A stretch of 64,000 nucleotides of DNA from Cetorhinus maximus (GCF_964194155.1 NC_135881.1:202554001-202618000); one strand, 5' to 3'. Positions 14,375 to 57,255 are shown, counted from the stretch's first letter. The notes: a model not told the origin generated them from the sequence alone. Made by a program: numbers and translations.

Positions 14375-14541
14375 AGCTCTTCTCCTTTTCGGGATTTCTT
14401 ATCCAGTACGAGATAAACCATCCCAAAACTGCCTCTCCCAAGTTTCTCTTGTACCTGGTATCTTCCTGCAATCGGTGACTCAGTGCAGACTGCTGCTAAA
14501 GTGTTTGTAACACTTTTTGTGGCTTCTTGGAACTTAGGCAT
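14375..14541 (-). CDS. NEK11: NIMA-related kinase 11, first coding exon (rest of gene lies left of the window)
   Basis: Reverse translation MPKFQEATKSVTNTLAAVCTESPIAGRYQVQEKLGRGSFGMVYLVLDKKSRKGEE(L) matches recalled human NEK11 N-terminus MLKFQEAAK..RYVLQQKLGSGSFGTVYLVSDKKAKRGEEL. Kinase G-loop GRGSFG. Donor GTAAGT at 14374-14369, acceptor ttgttccAG/cAG near 14631. Syntenic with ASTE1 and ATP2C1. Not in the ORF track. Confidence 0.93.
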
Positions 14542-15794
14542 GTTTCCCCTCTCACTGAGTGTAGATTGACAGCTTTCTTCCAGTATGCTTTATTTTTACG
14601 CTCCCACATATAGAGCCTCCCAAACACCTGCTGGAACAACCAAATGCCAAGCAAGCTCAGTTGACACAGTCAAAGGATTGAATACTTCAAATAGCTCTTA
14701 AAACTAACATAAGTGCTAAATTGATAGAGTAACAATACAAAATCTAATGCTAGAAAATTATTATAACTTGTAGCTAAGAATCGGGAACAGCAAACCATTT
14801 AGGGGATAGAAACTGAATGCACCAATTATTCCATCACTGAATAAGATGAAACAGTTCACAAACGATGAAGTAATTCACAAGTGTAACAGAAATTATATTC
14901 AATGACTTTCAGTGCAGTGTTCTATGAAATCATGTAGATGTTTAAGTTGTGTGTTATTTTTGAAAAAAAATCAGAAATTTTAATTGGACTGTTTCACCTC
15001 AAATGGCAACCATTCTTTTGTGAAGAGAGAAGTAGATTTCTGCAATCCTTAATGTCCAATCTACCCCTTAAACACTAACTGCTATTCTTTACTAATGCAG
15101 GTGTAATGCAACTACCATTAAGCATTAAGATCTACCAGTATAAGAACTGCTAACAGGAAACTCAGTCACAGCACCTCTCAATAGCACAGATTCTGTTTGG
15201 GCTCGAGTTTTCCACCTGTGTTCGGCAGCCTATAACCTTTTGCCCATTAACATGAACCTGGAGTAAAATCGCAATCTGGTGCGCGCAAATCCTCTGCCCA
15301 CCTCTTCACCATCCCCCAAATCCTCCCCTCCACATCTTTCCCCACACATAAATGCCTCCACCCCCCCGAACTGATATGCAATTCATAATTGTTTCTGACG
15401 GTTAAGCACTGCATGTATGACAGCGTGAATAACTGGTGAACAACTGTGGAAAAAAGTGCAGTGCGAGTATGTGCAGCAGCCACTTACTAAGGTGTGTTGG
15501 GATGATTTGTATTAGGCAATTTTATATTAACTGTGGCTGATGATAGGTCCTCGAATTGAAACATTAACTCTGTTTCTCTCTCTGCAGATGTTTCCAGACC
15601 TGCTGAGTATTTCCGTTATTTGCTGTTTCTTTCAGAATTCCAGCATCCGCTCTCATGCCTGTGACTCCTCGCTCCAAATCTATTGTGGAGATGGTAGACA
15701 GAAAACAGATCCTTGTGCGACCCCAGCGGTAACACCCTCGCCAGCTGTTCCTGTACGATACCTCTAAATTCTATAAGATAAACAATTGCGTATT

Positions 15795-19274: not shown

Positions 19275-19545
19275 TGGTAGCCGCACAGTTGCAGCAATGA
19301 GGAAGACTGGAAAAGGGAGGCGTTTCAATAGGAGATTCTGCGTTTCTCATTCCTATGCACAGACAGCGCAAAAAAAAAGGATTAAACTACTTTGCAAACT
19401 ATGGCAACATCATACACAATGCAATCCACAGGGGTCCCCAAGCCAGCCCTAAAGAAGTGAAGTCAAAGTTGTTCTGCTAGCAACAAGGGTCAGGCAAAGC
19501 CTGCGACAAGTGTTGTAGGAAGCCAGGCACACGTGCCACACTCAC

Positions 19546-19800
19546 CTGCCCAGGTAACAGACAAAGTGATACAGTGAGGAACAGGCTCGCTGTTTAAATT
19601 AACAACTGCAATCAAGCTCTTTAACTATATCTCTCTCTCTCTCTCTATGCAATAGTTTTAATGCAATAAATTCTATAAAATAACATTATGCAATAAATTC
19701 CACGCAGTAGATTTTCTGCAATGCACCTTTGTTTACCCGCTGGCGGATCCCCGGGGGAGGGAGGCGGGTTTTAGCGTCCCGGTTGCTCCGCAACGGCTCG
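19546..19800 (-). other. NEK11: Probable NEK11 non-coding exon 1
   Basis: Strong donor CAG/GTGAGT at 19546/19545 downstream of the CpG-rich promoter; weaker alternative donor near 19737. TSS not determinable. Confidence 0.4.
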
Positions 19801-19925
19801 GGGCATGCCGGGAATCCTTCCCCCGTGAACAGATAGGGCAGTTTCGCAGTGACGTCACTGCAATGGCGGCCGCCACCGGAATCAGCTTCAGCCAGTGTCT
19901 TTCCCGCCTGGATCCCTGGAGCAGA
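19735..19925. promoter_or_regulatory. CpG-rich (probably bidirectional NEK11/ASTE1) promoter with RFX X-box, palindromic CRE and YY1-like site
   Basis: GTTGCTCCGCAAC (19782-19794), GCAGTGACGTCACTGC (19846-19861) and AATGGCGGC (19862-19870) in a local CpG cluster. A + strand donor CCG/GTAAGA lies at 20292/20293. Confidence 0.65.
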
Positions 19926-20491
19926 GTCAGACTGGTTACACACTTGATCTTGATCAGATTAAATCCTGGATCCTTGCAACAATATTTATACCCAGACATC
20001 CTAACTCTACAATTTCTGCCTGAATAGAGAAGAGACTTTTTGAAAATTGAACCTTTATTTGATGCACTTTTTAAAAGAGAGATTATATATATATATGTAT
20101 ATATACACACACATATACCCTGAAAGCTGTTTCGATAAATGATTAAAAAATGTTTCAATATCTCGGCCCTTGAATCTATGGAAAAGTGTTGGGCTGTTTT
20201 CAGTCGGAACTGTTGTTTCGAGTATTTGCCTTCCGGCCTGACACTGCCGAGGACAAGGGGAGGGTTTCACTTTTGAAAGGCTTGTGTTCCCGGTAAGACT
20301 TGTTGCTTTTTTTGTTTAAAACTGTGGATCGCGGGAGGTGGAGTCATTTTAGATCCTCGATTCGTTGAGACCAATAAGGCAACTTTCACATAGTTCAGTG
20401 CCTTCAACGTCTCACGGTTAGGATAACTTTTTGCCCATCCTAGCCAACTCAAGAGGGAGGCGGTGGTGTATGGTCCCTGGACTAATACTCC

Positions 20492-21754: not shown

Positions 21755-21830
21755 GAGGCAGGGGCGGGGTGATTCCGGAAGTGACGTTGCGGTGCCAGTG
21801 ACGTTTCTGGGCACCGTTGATTGGCTGGTT
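21755..21830 (+). promoter_or_regulatory. TATA-less housekeeping promoter of HSCB
   Basis: GC box GGGGCGGGG (21761-21769), ETS-CRE composite CCGGAAGTGACG (21775-21786), second TGACG near 21799, inverted CCAAT ATTGG (21820-21824), directly upstream of the ATG. Confidence 0.7.
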
Positions 21831-21836
21831 TGAACG

Positions 21837-22724
21837 ATGCTGCGCGGGCTGCTGTTGCTGCGCGCGGCTCCAACCGCCGCCCGGATCGGAGCGGGGATCC
21901 CGCTCCCCCCGCCGCTTCCCGGGGCGGGGATCCCGCTCCCTCCTCCACCGCCGCCCTGGGCGGGGATCCCGCTCCCGCCGCCGCCGCCTGGGGCGGGGAT
22001 CCCGCTCCCTCCGGCCGCCGGGAGACGGTGTGAGCTGTGGGCCGGGCCCAGGCCCGGGCTCTACCCGCTCCGCGTCCCCGGCCGCCGCGCTCTGTGTACC
22101 GGGGGGGCCAGAGGCTGCTGGCGGTGCGGGGCGGCCCTGGTGGAGCCCTCGGACTTTTTCTGCCCATCCTGCCGGGCCCTGCAGCCCCCGGACCCGACCC
22201 GCGACTACTTCCAGCTGCTGGGCCTCCCGCGCCGCTTCCGCCTGGAGCCCGAGCGGCTCCGGCGCTGCCAGCGCCGCCTCCAGCGGGACCTGCACCCGGA
22301 CAACTTCAGCCGCAGCTCCGAGGCCGAGCGCCGCTTCTCGGAGGAGCAGTCGGCGCTGGTCAACGAGGCCCTCGGGACTCTGCTGAAGCCCCTGACCCGG
22401 GGCCTCTACCTGCTGCGGCTGGAGCTGCCGGGCGAGGCCGGGGTCGAGCAGGAGGAGGAGGCGGGCGGCGGGGTTCCCGGCGGCGGGGACCCCGCCTTCC
22501 TCGCCACCGTCCTCCAGCTCAACGAGCAGCTGGAGGAGGCCCGGAGCCAGGAGGAGATCCGCCGGGTGGCCGAGGAGGTGGAGGCCCGGCTCCAGGAGCT
22601 GACCGAGGAGGTGGCCCGGGCCTTCGAGCAGGGCCGCCCGCGGGAAGCCCGCCCGCTGCTGCGCCAGATGCGATTTTGGAGCAGCGTCGGCGAGCGGGTG
22701 AAGGAGCGGCTGCTGCCCCGCTGA
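21837..22724 (+). CDS. HSCB: Iron-sulfur cluster co-chaperone HscB/Hsc20, mitochondrial, intronless, 295 aa
   Basis: Arg/Leu-rich N-terminus, [23 protein letters not shown] tetracysteine motif, J-domain with [16 protein letters not shown] and C-terminal scaffold-binding domain (MRFW). Collinear with recalled human HSCB and uninterrupted. Confidence 0.93.
21891..22012 (+). repeat. Coding minisatellite, 4 units of 33-36 bp (AGIPLPPP..)
   Basis: Core GCGGGGATCCCGCTCCC at 21891, 21924, 21960 and 21993; spacings 33, 36 and 33 preserve frame. Confidence 0.9.
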
Positions 22725-22809
22725 TGGTGGCGGGGGGGGGGGGGGGGGGAGGAGAGAGAGAGAGCGAGGTAAAGTATCAGGGGTATCACATAACTGGGGG
22801 GGGGGGGGG

Positions 22810-23383
22810 TAACTCTTGTAGAGTTAAAACAATTAACTAAATTAACAATAACAAGGGAGAAATCAAGCACAGCCCCTAAGTCAGGTCAGCTGTAAAATCA
22901 AGGAAAAACTTTAAAGGAACCTTACAAACATCAAACCAAAATGTGATTAAAGGGGTCAACAAAACACCCACCGGGCACAGAAGGCCTCGATGGTGCCGGC
23001 AGACACCGCGTGCTCCCTTTCCAGGGACACCCGGCCGCGAATGTAGCCGCGGAAGAGGGACAAACAATCGGGCGGGACTCCCCCCTCGATCGCCCGCTGC
23101 CTGGACCTGTTAATGGCCAACCTGGCTAGGCCCAGGAGCAGGTTCACGAGGAGGTCCTCCTCCTTCCCGACCCCCTTCTGCACCGGGTGTCCGTAGATCA
23201 GGAGCGTGGGACTGAAGTGCAAACAAAACAGCAACAGAAGGTTTTCTAAATAACTAAAAAGGGAGTGCAGCCAATGACACCCTATATAAACGTGGTCCAC
23301 GGACTCCACAAAACCGCAAAAAGAGCAGGTGTCTTGGGAGTCCGTGAACCTACACATTCTACGGTTGTATGGGACTGCTGCGT
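22810..23383 (-). mobile_element. Tx1/L1-clade LINE 3' fragment (ORF2 CCHC zinc finger and 3' UTR)
   Basis: ORF 22956-23417: HAAVPYN..CSFCGFVESVDHVYIGC..LLLGLARLAINRSR..F..RW. Flanked by G runs at 22796-22809 and 23384-23388. Confidence 0.8.
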
Positions 23384-23507
23384 GGGGGTCCATTGTAGAG
23401 AAACCACCTCTCCCCATTCAAACCCAATTTAATTTAGTATTTATAATTGATGACAGTCAGACCACCTTGAAATGTTGACCTTGATTGCACGGAGAATGTG
23501 TACAGAA

Positions 23508-23662
23508 GTGGGGGAGTTTTGCTTTAGCCCCACAGGGCGTAGGGGAGGAATTTGACACCCGTGGGATTTGATGCTCCCGCCAAAGTCGACGGACTTTTGA
23601 ACGACTCGCTGCAATTTGCGCCCCGCCACGGCGGGGGGGGGGGGGCCATAAAATTCTGCCCC
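23508..23662. mobile_element. Harbinger-type MITE
   Basis: Right end AAAATTCTGCCCC (reverse complement GGGGCAGAATTTT) resembles the TIR at 3841; degenerate left end GGGGGAGTTTT; CpG-rich interior. Confidence 0.5.
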
Positions 23663-23679
23663 GTTTTTTGCACAGTTTC

Positions 23680-25400
23680 GGTTCACCCTAAGGAGGGACA
23701 TCCTTTAATCGGAAGCAGCTCAGAGAGGTTGGCTCGGCTGATTCTTGGGGTGAATGAGGAAAGGTTGGGCCAGTACTCGTTGGGAGTTTAAAAGAATGAT
23801 CCTATTGAAAGATATGAGATTCTATATGGGGCTTGACAGGGTAGATGCTGAGAGGATGTTTCCCCCACATGGAAGCACAGTTTAAAAATAAGGGGTCTCC
23901 TATTTAAGACAGAGGTGAGGAATTTCTTCTCAGAGGGTCCTTAGTGTTTGGAATTCTCTTCCCCAGAGAGCAGTGGAGGAATAAAATCAAGGCTGAGATC
24001 GATAGATTTTTTTAATTAACAAGGGAGTTGAGCGCTACGGGGCGGAAGGCAGGAAATTGGAGTTAAAAAGCCACAGTCAGATCTTATTGAATGGCGGAGC
24101 TGGCTCGAGGGACCAAATGTCCTGCACCTCCTACTTCTTATGTTCTTATGTATGTAGTATTAATGTAATCACCACAGACAGGCTGGAATTATCAGCTCCA
24201 ACTTGCATGAGCGCAAAATGTGACGGTGAATTTTTATTTTACTCAAAATTAATCCAGATTTAGTTGGGAATGTTTGATAGGAATTAAAACCTCCAACCTC
24301 TCCAATATTCAATCAGATCAAGGCTCATCCCTCTCCATATTTCTTATTACCCTTGGCTGGCAAAGATTTGTCAATCTCAGATTTAAAATTATTAATCAAC
24401 TACTTTTTTTTTGTTTGAGTTCCCCATTTCTACCACCCTTTGCACAAGGAGCTGCTCCCTAACTTCTGGATCTGATTTTTCATGTTATGTCCCCTTGTTC
24501 TGAACTCCCCCATCTGTTAAAAAACTATGTACTCCAACGAGATTTGTTTAAAAATCCTAAAAACCTCAATCAAATCACCCCCACCATCCCCCCCAACTTT
24601 CTATATTCCATATAAAATAGCACAAGCCTGGTTTATGTAACTTTCCTTGTAATTTAACCCTTGTGACATTCTGGTGAATATGCACTACGTTCCTTTCAAG
24701 GTCAATATATCCCTTCTAAGGTGCAGTACCCAGAACTGGACACAGCGCTGCAGATGTGTAACCAGTTACATTTCCCTTAAAACACTGAATTTTAATTAAA
24801 ACATGAAAATCACAAACATATTTTAACCTTACCACATACAATACAATCACAATATACTTGGGAAATAAGTGGTATATAAATCCCAACACGGCTTTGCCCT
24901 TCCCATATCTCTAAATTCTAGCCCCGTCTGCACTTCACCTCACTCGATTCTGATGCTGTCCTCGTGTGTCTCCTCACTTAACAGCCAATTGAGTACTTAC
25001 AAACATACAAAATAGGAGCAGAAGTAGGCCATTCAGCCCTTCGAGCCTGCTCCGCCCTTCAATAAGTCCACGTTCCCATCCACCCCCGATAACCTTTGAT
25101 TCCCTTGCCTAACAAGAATCTATCCACCTTCACTTTAAAAATGTTCAATTACCCCCCCCACCTCCACCGCTTTCTGAGGCAGAGAGCTCCAAAGTTGCAC
25201 AGCCCTCAGAGAGAAAAAGAATTCTCCTCACCTCTGTCCTAAAAGGCCCAAATTTTAAAACAGTGCCCCCGGTTCTGGACTCACCCACAAGAGGAAACAT
25301 CCTTTCCACGTCCACCTTATACTCCAATCAAGTCACCTCTCACTCTTCTAAACTCCAGTAGAAACAAGCTCAGTATACCCAACCTTTTCTTGTAAGACTC
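23680..25400. mobile_element. Cluster of CR1 3' fragments in both orientations
   Basis: ERMFPLVGESRT-type ORF remnants and CR1 3' UTR motifs; + at about 23680-24150, - at about 24250-24760 and 25000-25400. Confidence 0.7.
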
Positions 25401-26258
25401 TCATACTTTAAACTGTAATCACATGAAATGTATCCTCCCTGAAGTCTCATTCTTTGGATTGATGTCCGTTTCTTTGTTACACCCTCGGGGTCCTCTGTGA
25501 TGTTTCTCTATGCAAAAGTTGCTAAATAAATACAAAATACTGATATTTCTTACACTCAATTGGTTCAGCAGATATGTATCCAAACTCTAAAATACCACAA
25601 GGTTGATGATATCTCTATTGCTACCACAGCAGTGTGCTAACAAATTTAAATAGTTGCAATTAAAAGTACAATTTTTAATAGGGGGTACTGCATCCAAACC
25701 CAGTTGGTGCCAAATATTGATCACTTTAGGTTAGTAATTTGCTTAAGCAGTCAAATGTGCACAGTAGTCGTGACTGGGGCTCACTGGAGACTGATCTAAA
25801 ATTTTTGATCACCGCACCTGCTGTAACCTAATGAGCTACCATGGGCATCATGATCGGACAACCTGGACCCTTATGTAGAAACAGAAGCCGGAGTAGGTCG
25901 TTCGGCCCTTCGGACTTGCACCGCCATTCAATATGATCATGGCTGATCCTCTATCTCGATGCCGTACTCCCGCTCTCTCCCCATACCCCTTGACGCATCT
26001 GGCAGAGCAGAGGGGGATAGGAATGGCTGCTTTCATTGGGGAGGTGGAAGGGAATTGGTAACATTCTCCTAATTTCTGCTTAGTTGTGGTAGAACTTTCA
26101 ATATGTAAAAGGCTGAGCAAATATATATTGATATAGTGAATTTGGACTTTACTTCAGTCGCTAAATGAGCATATGCACTATATACAATGTTCACGTATGA
26201 CCTAACCAGCCCAACTCATTGTATTTGTTACCTAGGGTGAAGCCTTTCGCTCATTAAC

Positions 26259-27614
26259 ATGGGTATCCATGGATTGATGACTTACATTGGAGAAAATAAT
26301 ATATTTTTTAATAACGTCAAGGTACAAAATACGAAAATTGTAATCGATGGCAATAACTTATTTCATAGACTTTACTTTGACTCTGGTCTTGATCTTGAGC
26401 ACGGAGGTGAATATGATTTGTTTACTGACGTCATCTGCAAGTTCTTTGAAGCCCTGTCTCTCTGTAATATTACACCATATGTGGTATTTGATGGTGGATG
26501 CGACTGTACTGATAAGAAGTTTGAAACTATCAAACAGCGTGCCAGGGAGAAAATCCAAAAGGCACATGTTATCTCGAGGGGCGGGGGAGGGTTGCTACTG
26601 CCGCTGCTCAGCCCAGAAGTTTTTAAACAAGTTTTAGTGCATTTGCAAGTACCTTTTGTCCAGTGCCATTCAGAAGCAGACCGTGACATTGTAACCCTCG
26701 CTAATCAGTGGGCCTGTCCAGTCCTAACACTAGACAGTGACTTCTGTGTCTTTGATTTGAAGGCTGGTTATTGCCCCCTCAATTACTTTAAATGGCAAAA
26801 CATAATTACTCATAAAGACCGCACCGGATCCTACATTTCGGCCCAGTGTTTCTCCGTGGAGAATTTCTGTAACCATTTTAGCCACATAAATAAAGCTCTT
26901 CTCCCTCTGTTTGCGGTGTTGAATGGCAATGATTACGTGAATCTTCCTTCCTTGGAGGCCTTTTTCACCCGAGTGCGTTTCCATGCAACGACTTCTGTGT
27001 CAACGGGAAGGAAAAACATGCGGATTCAAGGGCTCCTCAACTGGCTGTCCAGATTTACTGATCCGAAGGAGGCCATTGAAAATATTCTGAAGTACCTAAA
27101 ACAAAATGAACACGAAGAGGTCCGCAAAGTTCTCTGCTCTCTTATGGATGAATATACTCAGTCAGAAGTGGACCTTACAAAGTTCTTTCAGAATAAAGAT
27201 GTGAGACCCCACATTGCGACTGCTTTGGCCAGCAAAGCCCCCGAATGGGTATGCCTTGCTCTAATCAAAGGAGAGTTAGCCCCATTTCTTAGTGACTGCT
27301 TGATCTTAAAGAGGGTGTTTTTGCGACCTCAGGTGGAGAATACAGGCAGGCCCAGCAGTAATAGTTGCTCGTTGCATATTCGCCAGGTTATGTATGGACT
27401 TCTACTATATACCAATGAGCCTTGTCGTGACTTAGCATTGGATTTGGCGAGCAGCACGTGGGGAGGGGCAGGCATTGATGCTGAGGAACACAGCAAAGTG
27501 CATTGTGTGGAGGAATTCGATAGATATGAGCAAACACTGAGAAAAACTAGTGTTCAAGCGGTGCTGAAAAGATTCAACTCAGATGAAATCTATTCATTGC
27601 AAAGACTACCAGAG
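26259..27614 (+). CDS. ASTE1: Protein asteroid homolog 1 (XPG/PIN-family ssDNA endonuclease), coding exon 1
   Basis: MGIHGLMTYI..KIVIDGNNLFHRL..YVVFDGG..SEADRDI..CPVLTLDSDF..GNDY are XPG-N/I motifs. Acceptor cctAG at 26234-26235, donor GAG/GTGAGT, phase 0. Confidence 0.96.
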
Positions 27615-28914: not shown

Positions 28915-29122
28915 ATTTCTACGTCAGACAGAATCAGCTTTCTACTGGACACCTTGAGGACAAAACCTGATGTGCTGGCCTTGCCAGCTCACCTGCAGTT
29001 AACACTTGCTGTAACCTGCTCCTGGGTAGCTCATGCTGAACCCAGAGTGACATTGTACCATCTCCAGGCTTTGCTGCTTTGCATTGTAACTGGAGAACTA
29101 CATAAAATAATACACAAGCCAG
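28915..29122 (+). CDS. ASTE1: ASTE1 coding exon 2
   Basis: ttttgcAG / ISTSDRISFLLDTL..LPAHLQLTLAVTCSW..LQALLLCIVTGEL..KP / GTAAAT; 208 nt, phase 0 to 1. Confidence 0.9.
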
Positions 29123-31108: not shown

Positions 31109-31304
31109 GTAACAGCAGCTCTGAGGAGAGGAACGTCAGAATGGTGTATGACAGACTGTCTCAGCTGAGACAAAGAAAGCAGCAGATGGGGAATCTGGAT
31201 ATAGATGTAGCTCACGTGTTCTCTCAGTGGCAGAGCTGTCTTTTAATGGGAATCTATCTAAATCGGCTCCTGTGCTGTCCCCTTCCAGTGCCTGATATTA
31301 CACG
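31109..31304 (+). CDS. ASTE1: ASTE1 coding exon 3
   Basis: cctAG / NSSSEER..LDIDVAHVFSQWQSCLLMGIYLNRLLCCPLPVPDIT / GTAAGG; 196 nt, phase 1 to 2. Confidence 0.92.
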
Positions 31305-33731: not shown

Positions 33732-34026
33732 CCTCTATAGTGGGTCTTTTGTGCATCGTTTGTATCAAGAGCTAAAATCGATGGTTGCTGCAAAGGACCT
33801 ATTAAAGGGTTCTCTGATTGCAAGTGAGCTCCTGCACACACTGACCGCCGCAATACCAGCAGACCTCTTCCAGAAGAAAAGTAAGTCCAAGTCTCACAAC
33901 AAACTGAAGGAAAAGCAAACAGCTAATTCAACTATGTCATCCATGAGCAAAGATAATCAACGGCTCCCTACCTGGCATGATGCAAATAACCGATTTGCAG
34001 CCTTATCAACTGAGGATTTTGGATAA
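33732..34026 (+). CDS. ASTE1: ASTE1 last coding exon
   Basis: Pyrimidine tract then AG / (R)LYSGSFVHRLYQEL..NNRFAALSTEDFG*. The four exons total 2055 nt = 684 aa plus stop. Confidence 0.9.
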
Positions 34027-35484: not shown

Positions 35485-35490
35485 AATAAA
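35485..35490 (+). terminator. Probable ASTE1 polyadenylation signal
   Basis: AATAAA followed about 15-30 nt later by a GU/U-rich element tttgttttcttttgtg. Confidence 0.55.
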
Positions 35491-43838: not shown

Positions 43839-44152
43839 CTGAGAAACACAGATAACAAATACAAAACTCATTACCAACACACTATTTTTAATGAATATTT
43901 TAAAATTACATCTCTAAAAGAAAAGGATTCGCCACAAACTCTTTAATACACGTTTCTTTTTTTTAAACTGATGTTTTTGTTAAAAACATAATTATGATTA
44001 GCAATTTACTCGAAGTAGAAAAACGTCTAATCAGCTAGTAATTTTAAAATAGACAGACAGGACAACTCCCATACTTTGACTAAGAGCAGAGGTGGTTTCC
44101 ATCTGGAAGAAAAGGAAGACTTCACTGGTACAATTGGCTAGAAGGTGCTTAC

Positions 44153-44300
44153 CTCCCTCCAGAAGACAAATAACGTCCCAGAAACAATAATCAATGATGA
44201 AACCAGAATTTTAACAATCAGGTTTCTGGTCAGGATGCTGTCTTTTACATTTCTTGGAGGCTGTCTGATGACATCTTTGTCGACAGGTTCTACTCCCAGG
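44153..44300 (-). CDS. ATP2C1: ATP2C1 exon
   Basis: [49 protein letters not shown]; 148 nt. Confidence 0.95.
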
Positions 44301-45541
44301 CTGGACACAAGAGAACAAAGCAAAAGCAGTTCAGAATGTCACTGCAATAACTTGTTTACATTTTGCAAGATTGAAGAGTTGGGAGGGAACATGAGAATAA
44401 AGTCTGCTTTTTTGTTTAAACATATAAAGTGGAACAAATAGTTTAATTGTGCAGTAGGGGAATTAAATGCATGAAAGTCAATCAGATTTTTCCTTTTGAT
44501 TGTTGTTTTCAAGTTTGAGGCATTTTAATCTTGATTAAAATGTGAGTCTTGATTTGAGTCTGTAAATTACATAATTTTCTAATGATAATGTGTTCAAATC
44601 TGTGCTTTTCTCCTTTTGTTAGATTACTCATGCATCCCTCAAATAATTTCACCAAACATATTCAACTCAATCACATTCCAATACTTAAAAGCTGAGATGC
44701 AGTCACCTCACTTTAAATCTCTGAAAGTAAAATGTAGTATCACACAAAAAAAAATCATAACCTTACTTATAAACTTAAGTTTATAGGTGATTCCTATCAC
44801 CCTTTCATCCGCTATGACCCACTTGCTCCTGATCTCCCCGTGCCTTTTCTGTGGTTCAGTCCTCCTCACCACTGCAGTTTCTTTACATGCAGTGCAGTAG
44901 TTGCTTGAAGTAGGCAGAGGAAAGTATTTCAAAAGAAATAGGTAAGAGATGCAATCCTGAAGCTCAAGGAGGTGAAAGTGAAAAGGAAGAGTAGAGAAAA
45001 CGAGCAGAAAAGAGAAGTGAAGGAGGTTATAAAAGAGAGGAGTGGACATGGAAGAGGAATGAAGAATATGAGAACAGTGATAAAGCAGGTAGCAGGCAAA
45101 AGAGAATTGAAGGAAATTAAGGCAAGGAAAAGAGACATGAAACAGGTGAGCAAAAGTGATATTCACAGAGTCCAACTCTGATTAACAAGATCCAAATTAC
45201 ATTTATTTCAGCACAATGAATGGGGAAAGAGAAGAGACTCTTCACAGGATTGAAAAAAGTATCCTGCTGGGGCGGGGGGGGATGAACAAAAATGTGACAG
45301 AGACCTTGTTGAGGCAGGGGAGAAGGACACACTCTGGATCAAGCAGTAGGGGAAGGGCTTTGCATGAAGGGAGAGATTAGCAGTGCTGTGAAGAATCTGC
45401 TGGGGTCAGAAAGGATTATTGGCCCATTTCATAAATGCCAGATCCTACAACTCATGAACAATGTCATGTGACATCCACTACTTATAATCAGGCAAGTTTG
45501 TAGAAAGACATTTCATCAATAATTGAAACTTTTCTTTTTAC

Positions 45542-45658
45542 CTCTGTGCTGGTGGTCCATCCATAATTATGTTAATCCATAAAATCTGCATAGCATTTAG
45601 TGGATTAGGAAAGTTCATTAATGTGGCTAAAGAAATCAACGTTAGAGCAGCTATACTC
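45542..45658 (-). CDS. ATP2C1: ATP2C1 exon (M5-M6)
   Basis: [38 protein letters not shown](S); 117 nt. Confidence 0.95.
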
Positions 45659-45836
45659 CTGGGGAAAAAAATGAAATTGAATAAAATTGTTTATGTTTTA
45701 TCATACAGTGAGTAAATTTTAACATAGCATAGCTAGATATTTAAAATATTACATATTTATATTTATATTTAAATACTTTAAAAGTAAGCTTGTCAATGAC
45801 AAATTTCCCTCAGGTAATCGTCCTAAGTTGTACTTA

Positions 45837-45926
<90 letters not shown>

Positions 45927-46930
45927 TTAACTGACATGGCTAACACACTGGACAGATTGTACTGACACACACTAAGATGCGTTAGTCAACCAAAATGTTT
46001 TATTCTACAAAGAGCTAGTCAAAAGAATCTAAACAATTGCCATTCTGTAACTGAGCACAGCATCACTCTGAGCTATGCAGTCATACTGGTGTGTGGAATA
46101 ACATAAGAACAGAAGGCAGCCGTTTATCCCCTCGAGTCTGTTCTGCCATTCAATGAAATCAGTGCTGATCTGTGACCTAACTCCAGTAACTGCCTTTTCC
46201 CCTTATCCCTTAATTCCTTCAGTTAACAAAAATCCATCAATCTCGGATTTAAGATTAACAATTGACCTAGCATCAACTGTCATTTGTGAGGGAGAGTTCC
46301 AAACTTTTACCACCCTGTGTGTATGTGTAGAAGTGTTTCCTAATTTCACTCCTGAACATTTTGGCTCTAACTTTTAAACAATGCCCCATTTGCAAATTAA
46401 AATCCAAAATACATAGGTGCAAGTTTTAAACCTTTTCTTAAAACAAACTGGCAGGTGAAAAGGTATGGCTCAGAAATAAAGTTTGCAAATCTTTTCTGAT
46501 GTGTTCATTTCAGCAGAATTATCCTCTTTTCTTACAATAAGGCACATTATAGCTTATGATATGGGATTCTAACCTGTGTCTCAATTTCATATAAGTGATA
46601 TATACAATACACTCTCTGTAGGAGAGCTTGGAGAGTTGCATAAACAACATAAAATAAAAAGACATTTAAGTGGATTCGTCAGGGCAGGGAGCAATAAACT
46701 TAAGCTGATGAAAGCACATAGCCAGATGTGCACATGTCTGTAAAGTTCAGTACTACACACCTGAATGTACAGAATCCGGTAAATTATGAATTCTAACAAG
46801 GATCCTTTGTATTTTTTTGGACATAATTATTGGTTATTCTTCAGGGTGGAATCTCAAGATACAAATGAAAATGTTTCATTTTAACCAAACTAGAACTCAA
46901 AATACCTAGAAACACATAGGAAACATTTGC

Positions 46931-46967
46931 AGTTCTGATGAACGGTCATTGACCTGAAACGTTAACT
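46931..46967 (+). ncRNA. Minimal type I hammerhead-ribozyme motif in a Penelope terminus
   Basis: AGTT-CTGATGA-A-cGGTC att GACCt-GAAAC-GTT-AACT: stem I AGTT/AACT, catalytic core, stem II and palindromic stem III AACGTT. Confidence 0.55.
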
Positions 46968-47127
46968 CTGTTTCTCTCCACAGATGCTGTCTAATCAGTT
47001 GAGTTTTTCCAGAAATTTTTATTCTTATTTTCGGATACATTTGCTGTTGATTTGCAATGGTTTAATCGTGAAACATTCAGTACTCTATTGCATAATGATT
47101 GGTAGGAATGACAGAAAGCATGACTTA

Positions 47128-47391
<264 letters not shown>

Positions 47392-48817
47392 TTATACTAT
47401 GAACACAGATAAATTACAGAAACTTTGTTCCAAATCAGTATGAAACAGCTAATCTGTTGTAAGAAGAATATTGGAAATAACATGGACATAGGAAAATTCA
47501 CTAAAAATAAATAATTATAGTTATGAAGAAAGGAATGATAATTTGGAGGGAAAGGCTTAAGAGGTCAATCTAATGGAGATTTTCAAAATTATAAAAGGTT
47601 TTGAAATAGTGAAATATTATATGTGAGCAGTGGTGAATTCAAAGGGACACAAACCCAGGACTATCACCAGATCAGTGAAAAAGTTAGAAATAATTTCACA
47701 GAGGGTTATTAGAATATTGAATGTATTACCACGTCCAGCTATTAAGGCAGAGTCAATTTCATTTAAAAGGAAATTAGGTGCATAGTAAAAAGAGGAATAC
47801 AAAAATAGACAGGGAAATGGGGTGACAATAGATATTATCTAAGGAGCCTGCACAAGCACAGACTCAATGGGCCAAGTAGCCTCATCTGCTGTAATTTCTA
47901 TGAAGCTATATTCCACTCTTCTACCAATTCAGCCAAGGATTTGCTCCAAAATTGTTACGTCTCAACTTTTTATGCAAATTGGAAAGAGACTAGCCCCATT
48001 ATGTAGTATATTCCAAATCTGCTGTGCTATTTTAATTAAATATTAATTTTCATTAAAACAAATGTGCCTCCAATGATCATTAGGCAGTTCACTTTGAATT
48101 CAGCCACAAAAGGCAGGCAAAAAACATTAAGTTTTATACCTGGATAAATCAGATCTTTAGGTAGTCAGAAGAAATTAGGATAGACATATTAAAGAAAATT
48201 TATGATCAAGTGACCTCAAACTGAAAGGTAAATTATTAGCATATTAAAATAACGAATTCTATGGTGATACTGCAAATACCTAGTTTGATTTGTTCACAAT
48301 CATTCTCTAGCTTCACATCATTTATGTGCAGAGCTGGAATATTCAGATATGGAAGAACACATTTGAATAACATGGTCAAGGTAAACAAAGGTGATTTAAT
48401 TAACAGCACTTGGGCGTAATTTAAAAAGAAGTGGATGCAAACTTCTTTCCTAAAAGGCCTCATATTTCTGACATACACAGGCATGCTTCTGGAAATTGTA
48501 AATTCTAGGTTGCTAATGGTAATTAGTCACAGTCCACGAAAGACCATAGGAATCTCTCTCCATTAGACAGAGACAATTGATTATCTAGCTTGAGGGACAC
48601 CACTCAAGGTGCATGGAGCAAGACAAGGAGGCAGACCTCTGTGAACTAAATTAAACTGACAAAAATATGGACTATGAAGTAAATTACCTGAAATTATAGA
48701 GATTTACTGAGCTATCTTTATAAGCTAAGAAGTTAGAGAGAGAAATTGTTATAATACCAAGGAAGAAGAAAATAACAGAGCCTGCCTTCAGAGCTATCTT
48801 TTGTCAATGGCAGTTAC

Positions 48818-48868
48818 CTTTATAATCTTCAGCTTGTGTCTTGGACTAGATCTGTAAAACACTGCTAT
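48818..48868 (-). CDS. ATP2C1: ATP2C1 exon
   Basis: IAVFYRSSPRHKLKIIK; 51 nt. Confidence 0.93.
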
Positions 48869-49058
48869 CTGTGAAAACACGATTGAATTAAGTAATTTAA
48901 AAGAAAAGTCTGATATAAAAGCAGTGCCAAGTCTAACATTATCACTTATAGATAAACAAATATGACAGTCACTTAAAATAGACAATCACTAGGGGAATTA
49001 CTTTCCCATATCCTTTCTGCAAACAAATATATGTTTTCTAAACAAAAACCTTTTTTGC

Positions 49059-49227
49059 CTAACAAAAACACCTGGAAAAACTCAGCAGGTCTGAAAGCAT
49101 TTGCGGAGAGGAACACAGTTAACGTTTTAACTGTGTTCCTCTCCGCAGATGCTGTCAGACCTGCTGAGTTTTTCCAGGTATTTTTGTTTTTGTTTTGGAT
49201 TTCCAGCATCCACAGTTTTTTGCTTTT
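49059..49227. mobile_element. Inverted (hairpin) Penelope terminal insertion with 12-bp TSD
   Basis: Arms 49061-49122 and 49127-49188 are near-perfect reverse complements. TSD AACCTTTTTTGC at 49047-49058 and 49228-49239. Confidence 0.85.
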
Positions 49228-50619
49228 AACCTTTTTTGCATAGCAGTATTCAGCAACAGAGAGGTTAAGACTATTCAGGTCACTGAAGATCATCCTTCTA
49301 GCCACTCATCCAGATGAACACATTTAACAGATTCTTTTTTTTTGGTCATGATGTGATTGACGGTTTTACATAACCAAACTAATTGTTTTTAAACCGCCCC
49401 TCACATATACAAGTTAACATCATTACTTATTTCAGAACTGTGCAATCCAAGTTATACATTTTATGTTCTTGGGTCAAGACTGTATTCACTGACCATTCCT
49501 AGTTACCCTTAGGGTTTCTTCTTCTTGAATAACAAATCATTTTACAACTGAGTGACTTAGCTAGGCTGCTTCACAGAGCACTGAATGTCAACCACATTGT
49601 ATAGGTAAGATCAGGTAAGGGTGGCATGTTCTCTGCCCTTAACGATACAAGTGAACAAGCTGGGTTTCTACAACAATTCTGCAACTTTCTTGCTGCCAAT
49701 CTATAAATTAACAAATTTGGTGAAGTCAGTTTTAATTTGTCATGGTGGAATTTTAACTCATTGACCTGTTCCATAAACAGTGCATGGCCATACCCATTTT
49801 GACACTCATAGTTCCATACTCCTTTGCACTTGGGCAAAGTTGAGTTCTCTGCAGATATACTCAAATGCATGGGCAGAGCTACACTTACTGACTACTACCA
49901 TAATTGTAAAGACCATGTGTTGAATTGTTACACACAGTAGTTTTAATACTTAAGAAGATAGTGTTGCACCAGTTCCAGTTCTAATTTGGTTGGTGAAGCC
50001 CAAGCAGCAAGAAGTTATGGTCACTTGCCAAAATTCAAATGTCCCTCAGATGGGTGATTTCAAGCCCCAGTCATATTTTGCCTTGTTGCATTGATGTTGG
50101 ACAAACACCGCATCACAAGAGAAAAACTACAGTGGAATGGAACCTATGGTCCTCAAGTTCCGTCATGTGCAGCAACTAAATAGAGTTTTGCTACTCTATT
50201 TCATCAGTTTCATAAGTTATAATGGACTGCTTGTGGAGGTTTAATGCAACTCCTGCAAATATTAAGAAATGTAAGACAGGTTGGTTACTTTCTTTAGTTA
50301 CAGAACAATTTAGTTGAGTTCTGTTAATTTAGACAAACAATTTGAGGCTAAGTGTAATTGCTTCTCCAAATACTGCAAGTCTCCTAAACATAAAGCCAAA
50401 CGGAGCCAGCCTAAGGGAGATTCCTGGTGAATTTGTGAATGTTCGGAGGCTGAAGTCGTTGTAGTCCTGCTCTACCGTTTACCCCCTTACGTGTAGCCCC
50501 CAGTTCTGTTGTACAATAATTTAATTCCACAAACAAATGTAGATTCTTCTTTGCTGAGCTTCATACTAATAATTAGTTTGCATAAAGTAAGGTTTCACTT
50601 TACATTAGACACTCCATAC

Positions 50620-50717
50620 CTTTTGGACTATTTGTGACAGCTGTTGAATATCGAGTGAATCTATTTCTTCTCCTGAGAGTGTTTGGGATCCCTTGGAATA
50701 CAAGCCCAAACGGGTGG
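50620..50717 (-). CDS. ATP2C1: ATP2C1 exon
   Basis: (A)[32 protein letters not shown]; 98 nt. Confidence 0.93.
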
Positions 50718-51504
50718 CTGTATACAAATAAAAAATCTTTTATAAAAAGTGAGCTTACATGAAATATCCACTATTATCCAGTGTGAGCATTGTACAAAAT
50801 TAAATGTATATATCCAATATCAAATTATTCCAAATATCTTGTACTCCATCTCAAGACTAAATAAAAAATAAAATTAAAACAGCAACATTTTATATTCATT
50901 TATTATTCAGCTAATTGATAATATTTTGGTCAGTAAATTTATTGAATGATCTTCATCTGCTGTCTAGGAAAATGTTTCAGGGAGATTTTACATTGCTGTT
51001 TCGAATGGCCATGGAAACGGGCTTAATAAAATGGTCAGTCTTTTGCTCGCATCAGTTTAATTTACCATGTTTAACAACCTTTTCAAATTAATTTAATTTT
51101 GTCTTAATTCTCTGAACTTTAAAGTACAGGAACATGAAAACATCCTTTGTTTACTAACTTAATTGATTGCCTGCACTATTACCTGCACATATCTTCGGCA
51201 AGCTCAACTGGCTTCCTTAAATCCCTTCTCAGCTTCAATTCATGCTTCTCCAGACTTGAGTCTCTCAAAGTACCCGAGTTACTTTGCATTTTCTATTTTA
51301 TCATCGGAGACCATGCCTTCAATCACTACTCATCTGCCTTCTGGAATTATTTTCCAAAATCTCCTTAAACGGATCACCTCAATCCCTACTGCTATGGGCA
51401 GGGGAGCGGGGCAAACTGAACTCCTTAAGTTTTCTCACCATCTGTCTGTAAGCAGAGGTGTTTTAATTTTTGAAATAGGCTGTGAAGTTTTTTCCCAAGC
51501 CTTC

Positions 51505-52648
51505 TGTTTATGAAATCAATGTTAAATTGATTCGCAGCAAACTCTCTTTAGGGTTAAATCAGAAGTATTATTTATTCATACATTCAAACCCAGGGGATGG
51601 TCGTCACAATTACTTATACACACACAAACACACAAGGAGGAGATAGGAAAGAAAAATTTTACAACTAGGAATAACTTAAAATATATTGGATATTAATTCA
51701 CGTGAGTATCAGAGTCCAGAATGTCAGAGTCCATTGAGGGTTCTTTCATGTAGGAGTTAAAATTCAGGCCGGTTCAGCTAGCTGGAATCAAGAATTGCCA
51801 AATTCCTTCAAAGTTGGTGATGACGCAGCAAGATGAGATTTATATACAGAGCCTTGGTCCAGTCTATAGAAGATGACAGGAATATTCCAGAGAACCGGGC
51901 TTCGAAGAGGTTTGGACTTGAGGCAGGCTTTGCTGTCAGCCTGGAGTCCAGCTTTAGTGTTGACAGGTTGGATATTAACAGCAGACTGTCCTGGGAGTGC
52001 AGGAATGTTACATTAAAACTTTTCAAAGGCCAAAGGAGCTTAGGTCCTTTGGTGTTGCCCATTGATAAGTCAATCAGTTTCTATGTCTCTGGTCAAAATC
52101 CATTGTTCACCTTAGGAAACAGATGATTACGACTAGTACCTCCGTAGGTATAACCAGTTTTGACGGCTATCTCTTTGTTCTAAGTCCAGGCTGGGGAGAC
52201 AGACCGTCTGCTGCTCCTTTGTTTCAGTGATTGTAATGAGTCCACACATTGATAGGTGTGAGTTTCCGTAAGATGTGAGCATTGAGCTTTGTCCTGTAAT
52301 TACTGTCAGAAGTTTCCAGAACTGTAGCCAACTTGCAAATCATGTGGCCTGTAGCAGCCATGTTTTTGGTCCACCAAAGTCCATTTTTAAATAAGCAGAA
52401 AGTCAGGATTGATTTACACAATTTATGATCTCTTTTATGTCTCACAAACATGACGCTACCTTCAAAAGTCTTGTAAACACTCTTCATTTTGATCTCATCA
52501 TTGGCTTCCGCTCCCAATTTCTTTTCCCCTTCTTTCCCCGCCTTCTTAAGTACTAAGAGGGATTTATTTAAAATGGAAACTGTTTGCTCAGGTGCAAGTG
52601 ACACTCAATCAATAGCACTACATGCTAATTCCCACCTTGGTTTATAGA
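51505..52648 (-). mobile_element. Possible long solo LTR
   Basis: Degenerate inverted ends (TATGAAATCAA / TTGGTTTATA), minus-strand AATAAA near 51571 and TATATAAA near 51840; no coding capacity. Confidence 0.35.
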
Positions 52649-52896
52649 GCCAAAGAGGCCTACAACACAGAAAAAGCCCCTTCGACCCATCAAGTCTGTG
52701 CCGGTCAAACAAGTACCTAACTATTCTAATCCCATTTGCCAGCACTAGGCCCAGAGCCTTGTATGCCATGGTATCACAAGTGCACATCCAAATACGTTTT
52801 TCAAAAGTTTGTTTATCTTTGCTTTAGTTTTTATCATAATCTGATCATGATAATTGATCTTGCTAACTGAAAATTTAAATTAATAATGAAGACATT

Positions 52897-53560
52897 ATCC
52901 ATTCATCCATCCATTTTCACACCACTTCTCCTGGTGAGGGTCACGGTAGCAGTAAGTGGAGCAGGACCGACCAGACTTCCCTTTCCTCAGCCACAGATTC
53001 CAGCTCCTCCTGGGGGATTCCCAGGTGTTCCCAGGCCAGCCGAGAGATGTAATCCCTCCAGCGTGTCCTGGGTCAGCCTCGAGGTCTCCACCCAGTGGAC
53101 CGTGCCCGCTATAGCTCCAGCGGGACCCTACCAGGGGTGTTCCTTGTCAGATGCCTGAACCACATCGACTGGCCCCCCTCGATCCGGAGGAGCAGCGACT
53201 CTACTCCGAGGCTCTCCCAGATTGCCGAACTCCTCACCCTGTCCTGGAGAGTATGCCCAGAAATCCTGGGTTCTCTCAGAAAAGAGCAGGTTGCTCTCTC
53301 CAGGTGAGGGGTGAACAGCTTCCCTTAGTGGAGGAGTTCAAGTACTTCAAGATCCTGTTTGTGAGTGAGATTGGCCAGCGGATCAGTGGGGTGGCTGCAG
53401 TTCTGCGGGTGCTCTACCAGTCCATGGCAGTGAAATGGGAGCTGAGTTTTAATGTGAAGCTCTCGGTTTACTGGTTGATACACGACTCCATCCTCACCTA
53501 TGGTCATGAACTGTGGTAATGACTGAAAGGATAAGATTGCGGGTACAAGTGGCGGAAATG
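52897..53560. mobile_element. Rex3/Expander-like RTE LINE with 5' inversion
   Basis: Minus segment 53270-52897 gives HTLQDRVRSSAIWESLGVESLLLRIE and an (ATGG)n tail. Plus segment about 53271-53560 gives EQLPLVEEFKY..LTYGHELW(V)MTERIR..AEM. Degenerate TSD AATGAAGA at 52885 and 53557. Confidence 0.8.
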
Positions 53561-56235: not shown

Positions 56236-56239
56236 TTAG

Positions 56240-56900
56240 AGATACATTGTGTAGAAAGTCTCTCGAGCAACAATCCTGCCACTCTGTTGTAAGCATGTGA
56301 GGCTAGGACTGCGTACCAGCATCATGCCAACAAGATCAGCCATTTTCACTCGAGCTGTCTTCAGAAGCTTCTGGAAATCAGATGGCAGGACAAAATACCA
56401 GACACTGAGGTGCCCACCCAAGCTGGCATGCCCAAGTATCTACCCCATATTGAGACAGTCACAATTAAGTTGTGGTCATGTAGCCAGAGTGCCTGACACT
56501 CGCGTACAAAAGTGAATCTTGTATGGAGAGCTTGAGACTGGGGTACACTCTCATGGCGGTCAAAGGAAATACTACAAGGACATTCTGAAGGCTTCACTTA
56601 GGAGTTTGGATATAATCTTTGAGTCCTGGGAGAAGCTCGCCTAGGATCACAGCACCTGGCGATAAATAAAAAATAACAGTACGGCTTCCTTTGAAAGCAA
56701 ACGTATATCAGAGGCAAAGAGAAAATGCAAGGAGAGCCAGCAACTCATCCAACTTGATCGCCTGCTGTATCCTGACCTATTTGCATCAGAACCTTCTGGG
56801 TGCAATGTGGCCTTCACAGTCACCCATGTACCCACCAGAACCCTACCAAACATCCTAGATGATGAACAAGATCATCTTCACCTCGAAGGACAAACAAGGT
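56240..56900 (+). mobile_element. RTE (BovB-like) LINE 3' fragment
   Basis: WQDKIPDTEV..CPSI..LRQSQL..GHVARVPD remnants. Confidence 0.65.
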
Positions 56901-57255
56901 TTTAGTGCCTCTACCCACCAGCCCACCAGGGAAGCCTAAACTTACCTTAAAAAAAAGTTTGCATACATACAAGTGAGAACACAAAAGAATAGTGTGGAAA
57001 CCCATTTCCGTACTGTTTCCTGATTAAATTAATTCAGACTAACAATTTGCATGATAACCCAAGGAAAATGTGTTATCTGCAGGAAAAGTCAGATTGGGGT
57101 ATAACAATGCTAATAATATTTGACAATGTGGACGAAATAGGAAATTAATAGAGACATGTTAAAACAGAAAACATAATCATTGTGTTAAAGTGCATCTTTC
57201 AGAACACTACCTCCCAGCTATAATTTTTGGTACCAACATTGAACCATTAGATTAC

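Follow-up and report, generated by a model that had tools for sequence, protein, structure and literature searches.

An intronless HSCB gene that looks like a retrogene nested in the 5′ UTR intron of ASTE1 in Cetorhinus maximus

Introduction

The intronic retrogenes in the pairs Mcts2/H13, Nap1l5/Herc3 and Inpp5f_v2/Inpp5f, as described in PMC3113556, are intronless, possess a CpG-rich promoter and lie in an intron of a multi-exon host, as appears to be the case for HSCB of the shark Cetorhinus maximus; such retrogenes can alter the RNA processing of their hosts (PMC3113556). Those retrogenes are eutherian and imprinted and have X-linked parents (PMC3113556), whereas shark HSCB is an essential housekeeping gene, apparently parentless, in a predicted 5′ UTR intron. 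Like the orphan retrogenes of PMC3548309, it is a single-exon copy that is the only copy found, with a conserved protein. The main text of that paper deals with human genes and does not name HSCB, and nesting in, or splicing to, a host lies outside its definition.

The bicistronic pairs STREMI-SLC35A4, ASDURF-ASNSD1, MIURF-MIEF1 and PYURF-PIGY, given a "bipartite origin" in PMC13303939, resemble the present locus in that unrelated conserved ORFs were joined by retroposition, a mitochondrial protein is encoded upstream, and cartilaginous-fish annotation shows two genes. They differ from it in several respects according to the same paper: their two-ORF form predominates in long reads and carries ribosomes on both ORFs; their first ORF encodes a microprotein (103 aa in STREMI), compared with 295 aa for HSCB; the intronless ORF is more often the downstream one (50% versus 14.3%), whereas here it is upstream; and ASTE1 has a candidate promoter of its own. 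Green-algal bicistrons translated by leaky scanning, as presented in PMC11892635, have in common with it a start of ORF1 that is not optimal, a low number of ATGs ahead of ORF2 and a short spacer, but the HSCB ORF is roughly threefold longer than the median algal ORF1 and its scarcity of ATGs lies within codon composition. Support for a Drosophila Hsc20 dicistron was sought and not found in the literature consulted.

Results and Discussion

Structure of the HSCB-ASTE1 locus

The window is a stretch of 64,000 nt, one strand, with coordinates counted from its first nucleotide. It contains the following features.

14375..14627, minus strand: first coding exon of a kinase gene, with a Glycine-loop motif, ATG 14541 and donor 14374, head-to-head with ASTE1
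19545..19870, no strand: divergent promoter region, with the kinase-gene exon-1 donor 19545 (minus), an X-box-like site at 19782, a full CRE at 19850-19857 and a YY1-like site at 19861
20230..20300, plus strand: candidate non-coding ASTE1 first exon (P1), with an ETS site at 20230-20236 (minus) and donor CCG/GTAAGA at 20292/20293
21760..21825, plus strand: HSCB promoter-like cluster (P2) at a CpG-island edge, with a GC box at 21762, an ETS site at 21775, CRE half-sites at 21782/21799 and a reversed CCAAT at 21820-21824
21837..22724, plus strand: intronless HSCB ORF of 295 codons, encoding a presequence, 4-Cys module, J domain and HSCB_C
21887..22020, plus strand: tandem repeat of a 33-bp unit (3.9 copies), by which the proline-rich HSCB presequence is lengthened
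22695..22703, plus strand: weak donor-like CGG/GTGAAG (22697/22698) within the HSCB coding sequence, the exit point of the sawfish HSCB model
22722..22726, plus strand: TGATG overlap of the HSCB stop TGA (22722-22724) and ATG 22724
22725..22776, plus strand: purine tract of 44 nt, made up of G18 and a GA repeat, and donor GAG/GTAAAG at 22768/22769
22813..23688, minus strand, ends approximate: antisense LINE 3′ fragment, presumably Tx1-like (label of the sequence-only reading), with an ORF piece at 22956-23417 and ATTAAA 22946
23689..24142, plus strand: repeat copy, presumably CR1-like, carrying AATAAA 23980
26200..26258, plus strand: ASTE1 acceptor 26235/26236 (TAG/G) and 23-nt leader, which contains TGA 26238, in frame with ASTE1, and a second AG at 26241-26242
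26259..27614, plus strand: ASTE1 coding exon 1, 452 codons, start context A-3, G+4
28915..29122, plus strand: ASTE1 coding exon 2
31109..31304, plus strand: ASTE1 coding exon 3
33732..34026, plus strand: last ASTE1 coding exon, the first AATAAA 3′ of it being at 35485
44152..57400, minus strand: ATP2C1 exons, four of which were placed, in a partly mapped gene that runs convergently to ASTE1

Sequence analysis bore out the identities of HSCB and ASTE1, and ATP2C1 was named from its best solved-structure match (E=5.5e-25). The Pkinase profile matched the kinase exon with E=0.013, short of the cut-off, and an atlas search with this exon returned no family name; we take the gene to be NEK11 from human synteny, with no tool match behind the name. 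In a motif scan with consensus motifs, the X-box match at 19782 was the single one in 64 kb. The LINE fragment gave no Pfam match, and no structured RNA families were found in 19000-27000 at E up to 0.1.

Intronless state and relocation of HSCB

The whole of HSCB is one continuous ORF without introns, with a third-position GC (GC3) of 0.93; over 21750-22750 the GC content is 0.76 and the CpG observed/expected ratio about 0.8. HSCB has six exons in mammals. The same internal 16 residues are missing in six named mammalian isoforms, which indicates a skipped exon and hence a spliced gene. Shark HSCB therefore lacks the introns of its orthologues, one criterion of a retrogene. Another, a new genomic location, is seen in the contrast with tetrapods: HSCB and ASTE1 lie on equally long contigs in 10/10 sharks and rays and in 0/13 tetrapods, equal size standing for the same chromosome and not for adjacency, which is seen only here and implied for Pristis. 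Human HSCB is listed alongside CHEK2, in the 22q12 region. The direction of the move assumes that the tetrapod state is ancestral, with chimaera and bony fish outside the comparison; no chimaera HSCB was among the matches listed. Elasmobranchs have one HSCB per species among the matches listed, and no second copy appears among them (120 of 216; word-indexed searches).

HSCB is positioned between donor 20293 of the predicted upstream exon and acceptor 26236. It has the appearance of an orphan retrogene lodged in the first intron of ASTE1, within the 5′ UTR. The sequence-only reading overlooked both its intronless state and this nesting. Independently of what the transcripts are, HSCB could instead have moved at the DNA level and lost its introns separately, or a retrocopy could have entered an existing non-coding ASTE1 exon, P2 and the 22769 donor being older parts of ASTE1. 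On inspection, neither a poly(A) remnant nor a target-site duplication was recognised at HSCB, the 44-nt tract after its stop is purine-rich rather than A-rich, and promoter motifs stand within 80 nt of its ATG, all of which speak for such an origin. On the other hand, an ancient insertion would have lost the marks of retroposition, and P1 is nearer the divergent kinase promoter, where the human arrangement leads one to expect an ancestral ASTE1 start. Retroposition is also the simplest way to account for a gene that has both moved and lost every intron, an argument made in PMC3548309. We consider this alternative origin unlikely and favor retroposition into the ASTE1 intron.

HSCB and ASTE1 were not found named together in a search of the openly searchable literature, and no matches listed for HSCB with retrogene, retrocopy, intronless or shark terms mention HSCB; we found no earlier report of its move into ASTE1. 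Whatever the RNA does, an essential gene has apparently been relocated lineage-wide into the leader intron of another gene. To our knowledge, imprinting is not expected in sharks.

Promoter and poly(A) candidates

The motif CCGGAAG occurs only twice in 64 kb, marking P1 and P2 as candidate promoters. The P1 donor scores 4.85, ranks 2/100 among GTs in 19800-21790 and exceeds the 22769 donor. There is no ATG within 20235-20292 of the putative P1 exon; should transcription start near 19.85 kb, this exon would hold six, which counts against the account proposed below.

The first AATAAA past the HSCB stop is indeed at 23980 (the next at 25525), as had been noted, but its late appearance is no sign of read-through: only 0.42 would be expected in 22725-23979 (1,255 nt), and we rejected this argument since base composition predicts the gap. 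ATTAAA is present at 22946, as well as at 24283, 24795 and 25659; the 22946 copy is without a U-rich downstream element (9% T downstream). AATAAA 23980 is followed about 21 nt 3′ by a T7 run and is a plausible HSCB poly(A) site, which would give a 3′UTR of about 1.27 kb. It is missing in 3/3 other aligned copies of the repeat and falls where about 11-15 nt have been deleted. Its distance of 1.2 kb, its location within a repeat and the competition expected from the upstream donor weigh against this part of the account.

We propose that, in an ancestor shared by sharks and rays, an mRNA copy of HSCB entered the ASTE1 5′ UTR intron by retroposition and replaced its intron-containing parent. P1 (about 20.2 kb) would give the ordinary ASTE1 mRNA by 20292>26236 splicing over HSCB, and most ASTE1 protein. 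P2 (21.76-21.83 kb) would give HSCB RNA ending at an intronic poly(A) site, the best candidate being 23980. Alternatively, this RNA would be spliced into ASTE1, leaving from a donor close to the end of the HSCB ORF (22769; a 22698-like one in sawfish), to yield two-ORF RNAs, translated mainly as HSCB with little ASTE1 and probably held down by NMD. Taken as a whole, this two-promoter account seems to us modestly probable.

Candidate splice sites between HSCB and ASTE1

The donor GAG/GTAAAG at 22768/22769, 44 nt past the HSCB stop, and the acceptor 26235/26236, 23 nt 5′ of ATG 26259, lie where the sequence-only reading placed them, and the intercistronic spacer after a 22768>26236 splice is, as it held, 67 nt. 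The acceptor is not the first acceptor-like site: six pyrimidine-rich YAG sites precede it between 22769 and 26236. Donors were scored with a frequency matrix against a reference of nine donors called in the window. The 22769 donor ranks 2/188 among plus-strand GTs in 21790-26235, scores above three of the nine and is slightly above the near-identical ATP2C1 donor (3.42 versus 3.26), which makes it a credible donor for a bicistron. Sites of its grade occur at 1.2 per kb, with P=0.06 for one within 50 nt, and the surrounding tract resembles a microsatellite; both facts suit a chance match. The in-CDS donor 22697/22698 scores 1.2, lower than all nine reference donors. A fusion protein was correctly excluded, given TGA 26238-26240 in the ASTE1 frame, and neither splice route keeps the frame. 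We likewise rejected an HSCB-ASTE1 fusion among the best 150 representatives, the longest of which has 545 aa.

HSCB gene models of sharks and rays

The NCBI model of HSCB from the sawfish Pristis pectinata ends in a tail that is ASTE1 coding exon 1 in another frame. Its acceptor is the one at 26236, but it leaves HSCB at another donor, located within the HSCB coding sequence. The tail agrees with ASTE1 at 6/6 testable positions (chance about 5e-6), its length independently matches the acceptor position, and the model is not flagged as low quality. The Pristis protein is listed without an isoform designation, and the only HSCB of this species seen here is thus the spliced form, which counts against the two-promoter account. 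Such a splice is found in 1/18 elasmobranch models, and the normal stop ends 16/18. The in-CDS donor is impossible in 5/16 species, where Ile replaces Val.

Gene models of HSCB in sharks and rays cannot be relied on. Of the 18 elasmobranch proteins examined, four deviate from the usual HSCB form: besides Pristis, that of Heterodontus has a reverse-transcriptase N-terminus, that of Heptranchias is truncated, and that of Pristiophorus exits early into a tail not fitting ASTE1. This last tail, tried as a second ASTE1 splice, was rejected (best offset 12/27 positions; no good match in 19-35 kb). The Hypanus HSCB labelled 'isoform X1' has three cluster members.

That HSCB is simply a monocistronic nested gene in this shark, where 22769 resembles a donor by chance within low-complexity sequence and the sawfish HSCB model reflects a ray-specific event or annotation artefact, draws on these apparently mis-built models, on the frequency of 22769-grade sites and on the Logan ASTE1 record (682 aa), whose 2,425-nt contig is too short to hold HSCB too. 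The contig size is weak evidence, as assembly contigs break at branch points, and the 6/6 agreement of an unflagged model is hard to place on this reading. An unmethylated same-strand intronic promoter with a donor at the end of its exon is also commonly an alternative first exon, which tells against the monocistronic reading as well. We regard it as quite improbable. Some HSCB RNAs probably splice on into ASTE1, and two-ORF RNAs probably exist. The proposed HSCB-to-ASTE1 transcript thus stands in part: the splice is supported by the Pristis model and the linkage is conserved in elasmobranchs, but the donor differs and the motif arguments are no better than chance.

Possible translation of ASTE1 from a two-ORF RNA

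There is, as had been observed, no ATG in 21840-22667, with ATGs at 22668 and 22724, and the HSCB start context is A-3, C+4. The gap does not signal leaky scanning: 65% of 10,000 synonymous codon shuffles are without an out-of-frame ATG; P(0) is 0.06 under a first-order Markov model and 0.02 under a mononucleotide model. With no depletion beyond codon composition, selection for leaky scanning was rejected as its cause. Internal Met per HSCB core is 1.2 in 16 elasmobranchs versus 3.7-5.8 in other groups, which would suit a bicistron; however, Ile (0.8% versus 3.4-4.1% elsewhere) and Lys (0.9% versus 7.3-8.8%) drop as much as Met, and the loss is therefore explained by GC drive. G+4 is possible in 0/15 elasmobranch and 0/101 other named HSCB proteins, and a moderate start as an adaptation was rejected, +4 being non-G in all 116. 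The HSCB start is weaker than that of ASTE1 (A-3, G+4), as leaky scanning demands but not specifically.

A point that the sequence-only reading missed is that, after 22768>26236 splicing, ATG 22724 opens a 28-codon ORF that ends 19 nt into ASTE1, out of frame; its fate varies with the length of the G-run. The P2-type leader before ASTE1 would be about 990 nt, with folding of -44 to -65 kcal per 100 nt versus -22 for ASTE1. Such an RNA would have three ATGs upstream of ASTE1 and three junctions downstream, and the latter would invite NMD. The contexts of ATGs 22668 and 22724 are weak to moderate, compatible with leaky scanning, which counts against the two-promoter account; the HSCB leader is probably short and compatible with it as well.

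It is conceivable that the RNA is a true bicistron, P2 RNAs being mostly spliced into ASTE1, with the first ATG used for HSCB, ribosomes reaching ASTE1 through leaky scanning or re-initiating close to where HSCB ends, and ASTE1 translation clearing junction complexes and so protecting the HSCB message. Besides the credible donor and the low Met content, this reading has in its favor the acceptor shared with the sawfish model. Vertebrate bicistrons have been described as arising by retroposition followed by read-through, and in NCBI annotation one such bicistron of sharks and rays appears as two separate genes (PMC13303939). Against it stand the splice in only 1/18 models, the in-CDS donor excluded in 5/16 species, the G-run-dependent overlap of the 22724 ORF with the ASTE1 start, and the absence before either stop of TGGGA, a viral-type re-initiation core. 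The first ORFs of ASDURF and SNURF are much shorter than HSCB. At 888 nt this ORF also exceeds what re-initiation favors, namely short ORFs (PMC9661723), and the algal first-ORF medians of only 291-357 nt (PMC11892635). The long GC-rich ORF1, the overlapping ORF, the NMD-inviting junctions and the cleaner 20292>26236 route without an upstream ATG make a functional bicistron less likely, and we hold it to be doubtful but a real possibility. The same tentative standing applies to its wider form, in which one elasmobranch mRNA would serve an Fe-S co-chaperone and a DNA-repair nuclease, ORF1 would be a 295-codon parent-replacing retrogene, GC drive would have removed ATGs as a by-product and so enabled scanning, and lineages would reach the same acceptor from different donors (post-stop here; in-CDS, with overlapping ORFs, in sawfish). 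MOCS2A/B is said to be an overlapping bicistron, and a sawfish-type RNA would carry overlapping ORFs as MOCS2 does.

The locus offers a natural test of the model of bicistron origin by retroposition and read-through, with a first ORF far longer than in known cases, and the sawfish long-read RNA data that already exist (PMC13303939) bear on its first step, the splice. As for the bicistron criteria of PMC13303939, two near-full-length known-protein ORFs of at least 30 codons are present, and the intact, conserved shark and ray proteins indicate that both ORFs are under purifying selection.

Organization of the HSCB–ASTE1 locus

HSCB lies between a divergent kinase gene, which we take to be NEK11 from synteny, and ASTE1, with ATP2C1 past ASTE1. 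The HSCB coding sequence is a single unbroken ORF with Pfam matches to HSCB_C, 4-Cys and DnaJ, its core being 87% identical to Carcharodon HSCB; the ASTE1 ORF is 97% identical to its Carcharodon counterpart, and PMC9894118 describes ASTE1 as acting downstream of shieldin. Judged by these two proteins, a lamniform shark is the probable source of the window. The sequence-only reading proposed one mRNA encoding both proteins, and all coordinates on which it relied are present in the window. The main sites of the locus are:

20292/20293 (+), donor at the candidate ASTE1 promoter P1 (~20.2 kb)
21.76–21.83 kb (+), promoter-like cluster P2 of HSCB
21837–22724 (+), HSCB ORF, 295 codons, stop codon 22722–22724
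22697/22698 (+), weak donor-like site inside the HSCB coding sequence
22768/22769 (+), donor-like GAG|GTAAAG, 44 nt past the HSCB stop
23980 (+), earliest AATAAA past the HSCB stop
26236 (+), ASTE1 acceptor, 23 nt ahead of ATG 26259
26238 (+), TGA sharing the ASTE1 reading frame

Splicing of 22768 to 26236 would leave the proposed intercistronic spacer of 67 nt. An HSCB–ASTE1 fusion protein is ruled out by the reading frame, and the 150 best representatives include none of that length.

Six named mammalian HSCB isoforms share an internal gap of 16 residues, which shows that mammalian HSCB is spliced. Neither a second elasmobranch HSCB nor a chimaera HSCB was found among the 120 of 216 matches listed. 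The simplest reading is that HSCB would be an orphan retrogene nested in the ASTE1 leader intron. Linkage was judged from protein tables listing the length of the sequence that carries each protein, with HSCB and ASTE1 compared per species; the lengths are equal in all ten sharks and rays having both and in none of the 13 tetrapods found in both tables, equality meaning the same chromosome only, not adjacency, and several tetrapod assemblies being scaffolds. Species in only one table, the two different Mobula species, Logan rows and rows having no length (e.g. Pristiophorus) were left out of the count. The linkage in elasmobranchs is old. No paper naming both genes was found in the literature searched, and none of the further literature matches listed mentions HSCB in sharks.

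Only two ETS motifs occur in the whole 64 kb, one directly ahead of donor 20293 and one directly ahead of HSCB, the latter within a cluster of GC-box, CRE and CCAAT motifs. From consensus motifs we infer a pair of promoters on the same strand, P1 serving ASTE1 and P2 serving HSCB. A P1-type leader has no ATG from 20235 and six if it starts at ~19.85 kb; given an upstream plus-strand start, a good-context ATG within a YY1-like motif opens a 54-codon ORF (19863–20027, +). Adjoining the first exon of the kinase gene is a 299-residue open frame (18487–19386, −) that resembles GIY-YIG weakly, at E=4.6e-4 and so below cut-off, and is presumably the end of a Penelope-like element. Another open frame (6519–7142, −), weakly matching Myb/SANT-like domains (E=0.043), is probably a DNA transposon remnant.

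Base composition of HSCB and the ATG gap

GC3 is 0.93 in HSCB vs 0.45 in ASTE1. Internal Met averages 1.2 per HSCB core in 16 elasmobranchs vs 3.7–5.8 in 41 others, a rarity that points to GC drive, because Ile and Lys in elasmobranch cores fall as far as Met. Lys makes up 0.9% of the elasmobranch core vs 7–9% in other vertebrates, and G+A+R+P 38.5% (21837–22724 and the HSCB proteins P0002–P0017) vs 19–26%; the drive appears extreme. The presequence is lengthened by a 33-bp repeat (21887–22020); similar short repeats occur in the Carcharodon, Scyliorhinus and Mustelus proteins and are absent in rays and carpet sharks.

The stretch 21840–22667 indeed contains no ATG, which the sequence-only reading had called compatible with leaky scanning. 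When depletion was tested, 65% of synonymous codon shuffles of HSCB likewise had no out-of-frame ATG, and cruder sequence models gave P(0) = 0.06 and 0.02. The moderate HSCB start context is nothing special, G at +4 being possible in 0 of 116 named HSCB proteins examined, and the lack of AATAAA, read as evidence of read-through, concerns 1,255 nt ahead of 23980 in which only 0.42 are expected. The supporting motifs of the bicistron argument are not beyond chance.

Probable splicing of HSCB to ASTE1

Donor 22769, scored with a frequency matrix, reaches 3.42, second of the 188 GTs in 21790–26235 and better than three of nine reference donors called from coding continuity. By its sequence the site is a usable donor, which does not prove use; equally good sites occur at 1.2 per kb.

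In the NCBI HSCB protein of the sawfish Pristis pectinata the eight conserved C-terminal residues are missing, and a 13-residue tail ending in WVSMD stands in their place. Seven of nine residues of this tail match window 26248–26274 (E=2.4e-5 in 16 kb). The tail also fits the sawfish's own ASTE1 start in a shifted frame at all six testable positions, including the stop (chance ~5e-6); acceptor 26236 predicts a tail of exactly 13 residues. Therefore, in this one ray, ASTE1 follows shortly after HSCB, and in the annotated gene model a transcript is predicted to join HSCB to ASTE1 through the same acceptor as 26236. The model shares the acceptor of the proposed splice but not its donor, which in sawfish corresponds to 22697/22698 inside the HSCB coding sequence, scores only 1.2 in the window and is impossible in five of 16 species, where Ile occupies that position. 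Carpet sharks are a lineage without this in-CDS donor. ASTE1-derived tails occur in one of 119 named HSCB proteins and one of 18 from elasmobranchs. Long-read RNA data exist for Pristis pectinata according to PMC13303939.

The 8-mer GGGTGAAG is present at both 22696–22703 (in-CDS donor) and 26235–26242 (ASTE1 acceptor), and could blur the junction in this species via read alignment or template switching. An extra AG lies at 26241–26242, 7 nt into the ASTE1 exon; its use would delete TGA 26238. The HSCB models of Heterodontus, Heptranchias and Pristiophorus (P0008, P0018, P0019) look mis-built, with a reverse-transcriptase N-terminus, truncation and early exit; such faults are to be expected when a single exon is very rich in GC. 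Hypanus sabinus HSCB (P0016) carries an isoform X1 label. The label implies annotation of a second protein isoform, which for an intronless ORF suggests another spliced form.

Coding capacity of the probable joined RNA

A true bicistron, making HSCB and ASTE1 from one RNA, is rather unlikely in our judgement. After either splice the leader would be ~920–990 nt long and have a folding energy of −44 to −65 kcal per 100 nt, with two or three ATGs to pass before the ASTE1 start, and an out-of-frame ORF would overlap that start and end 19 nt inside ASTE1; on the 22769 route this ORF hinges on a G run (22732–22749), one base more or less ending it ahead of ASTE1. Under the 50–55 nt rule for NMD, a stop-to-junction distance of 44 nt would spare only the first junction. 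The HSCB stop precedes three ASTE1 junctions, which makes NMD likely unless ASTE1 is translated. Re-initiation, as treated in PMC9661723, prefers short first ORFs. Each gene also has a candidate alternative: ASTE1 the 20292>26236 splice, whose donor scores 4.85, better than donor 22769, and HSCB a 3′ end at AATAAA 23980 with a T run behind. Strictly separate transcripts are quite improbable in our judgement. We lean slightly towards a nested retrogene whose RNAs probably include a minority spliced from HSCB into ASTE1.

The predicted anatomy of HSCB in ASTE1 matches intronic retrogenes, of which Mcts2 in H13 is an example described in PMC3113556, and a second feature proposed for the locus, replacement of the parent by the retrogene, has a counterpart in PMC3548309. 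The bicistrons reported in PMC13303939 originate through retroposition and read-through, and by analogy the HSCB–ASTE1 locus could work like them; four criteria are set there, two of them being long-read predominance and ribosome occupancy. ATG depletion, the mark of leaky scanning in the bicistrons reported in PMC11892635, does not exceed background in HSCB. We therefore do not class the locus as a bicistron.

AATAAA 23980 is lacking in all three other aligned copies of the repeat in which it lies and coincides with a deletion. Within 23975–24015 this deletion is unique to the present copy, and the T run is longer than in the three others. AATAAA 23980 is possibly a poly(A) site newly gained once LINEs had inserted into the 3′ region of HSCB.
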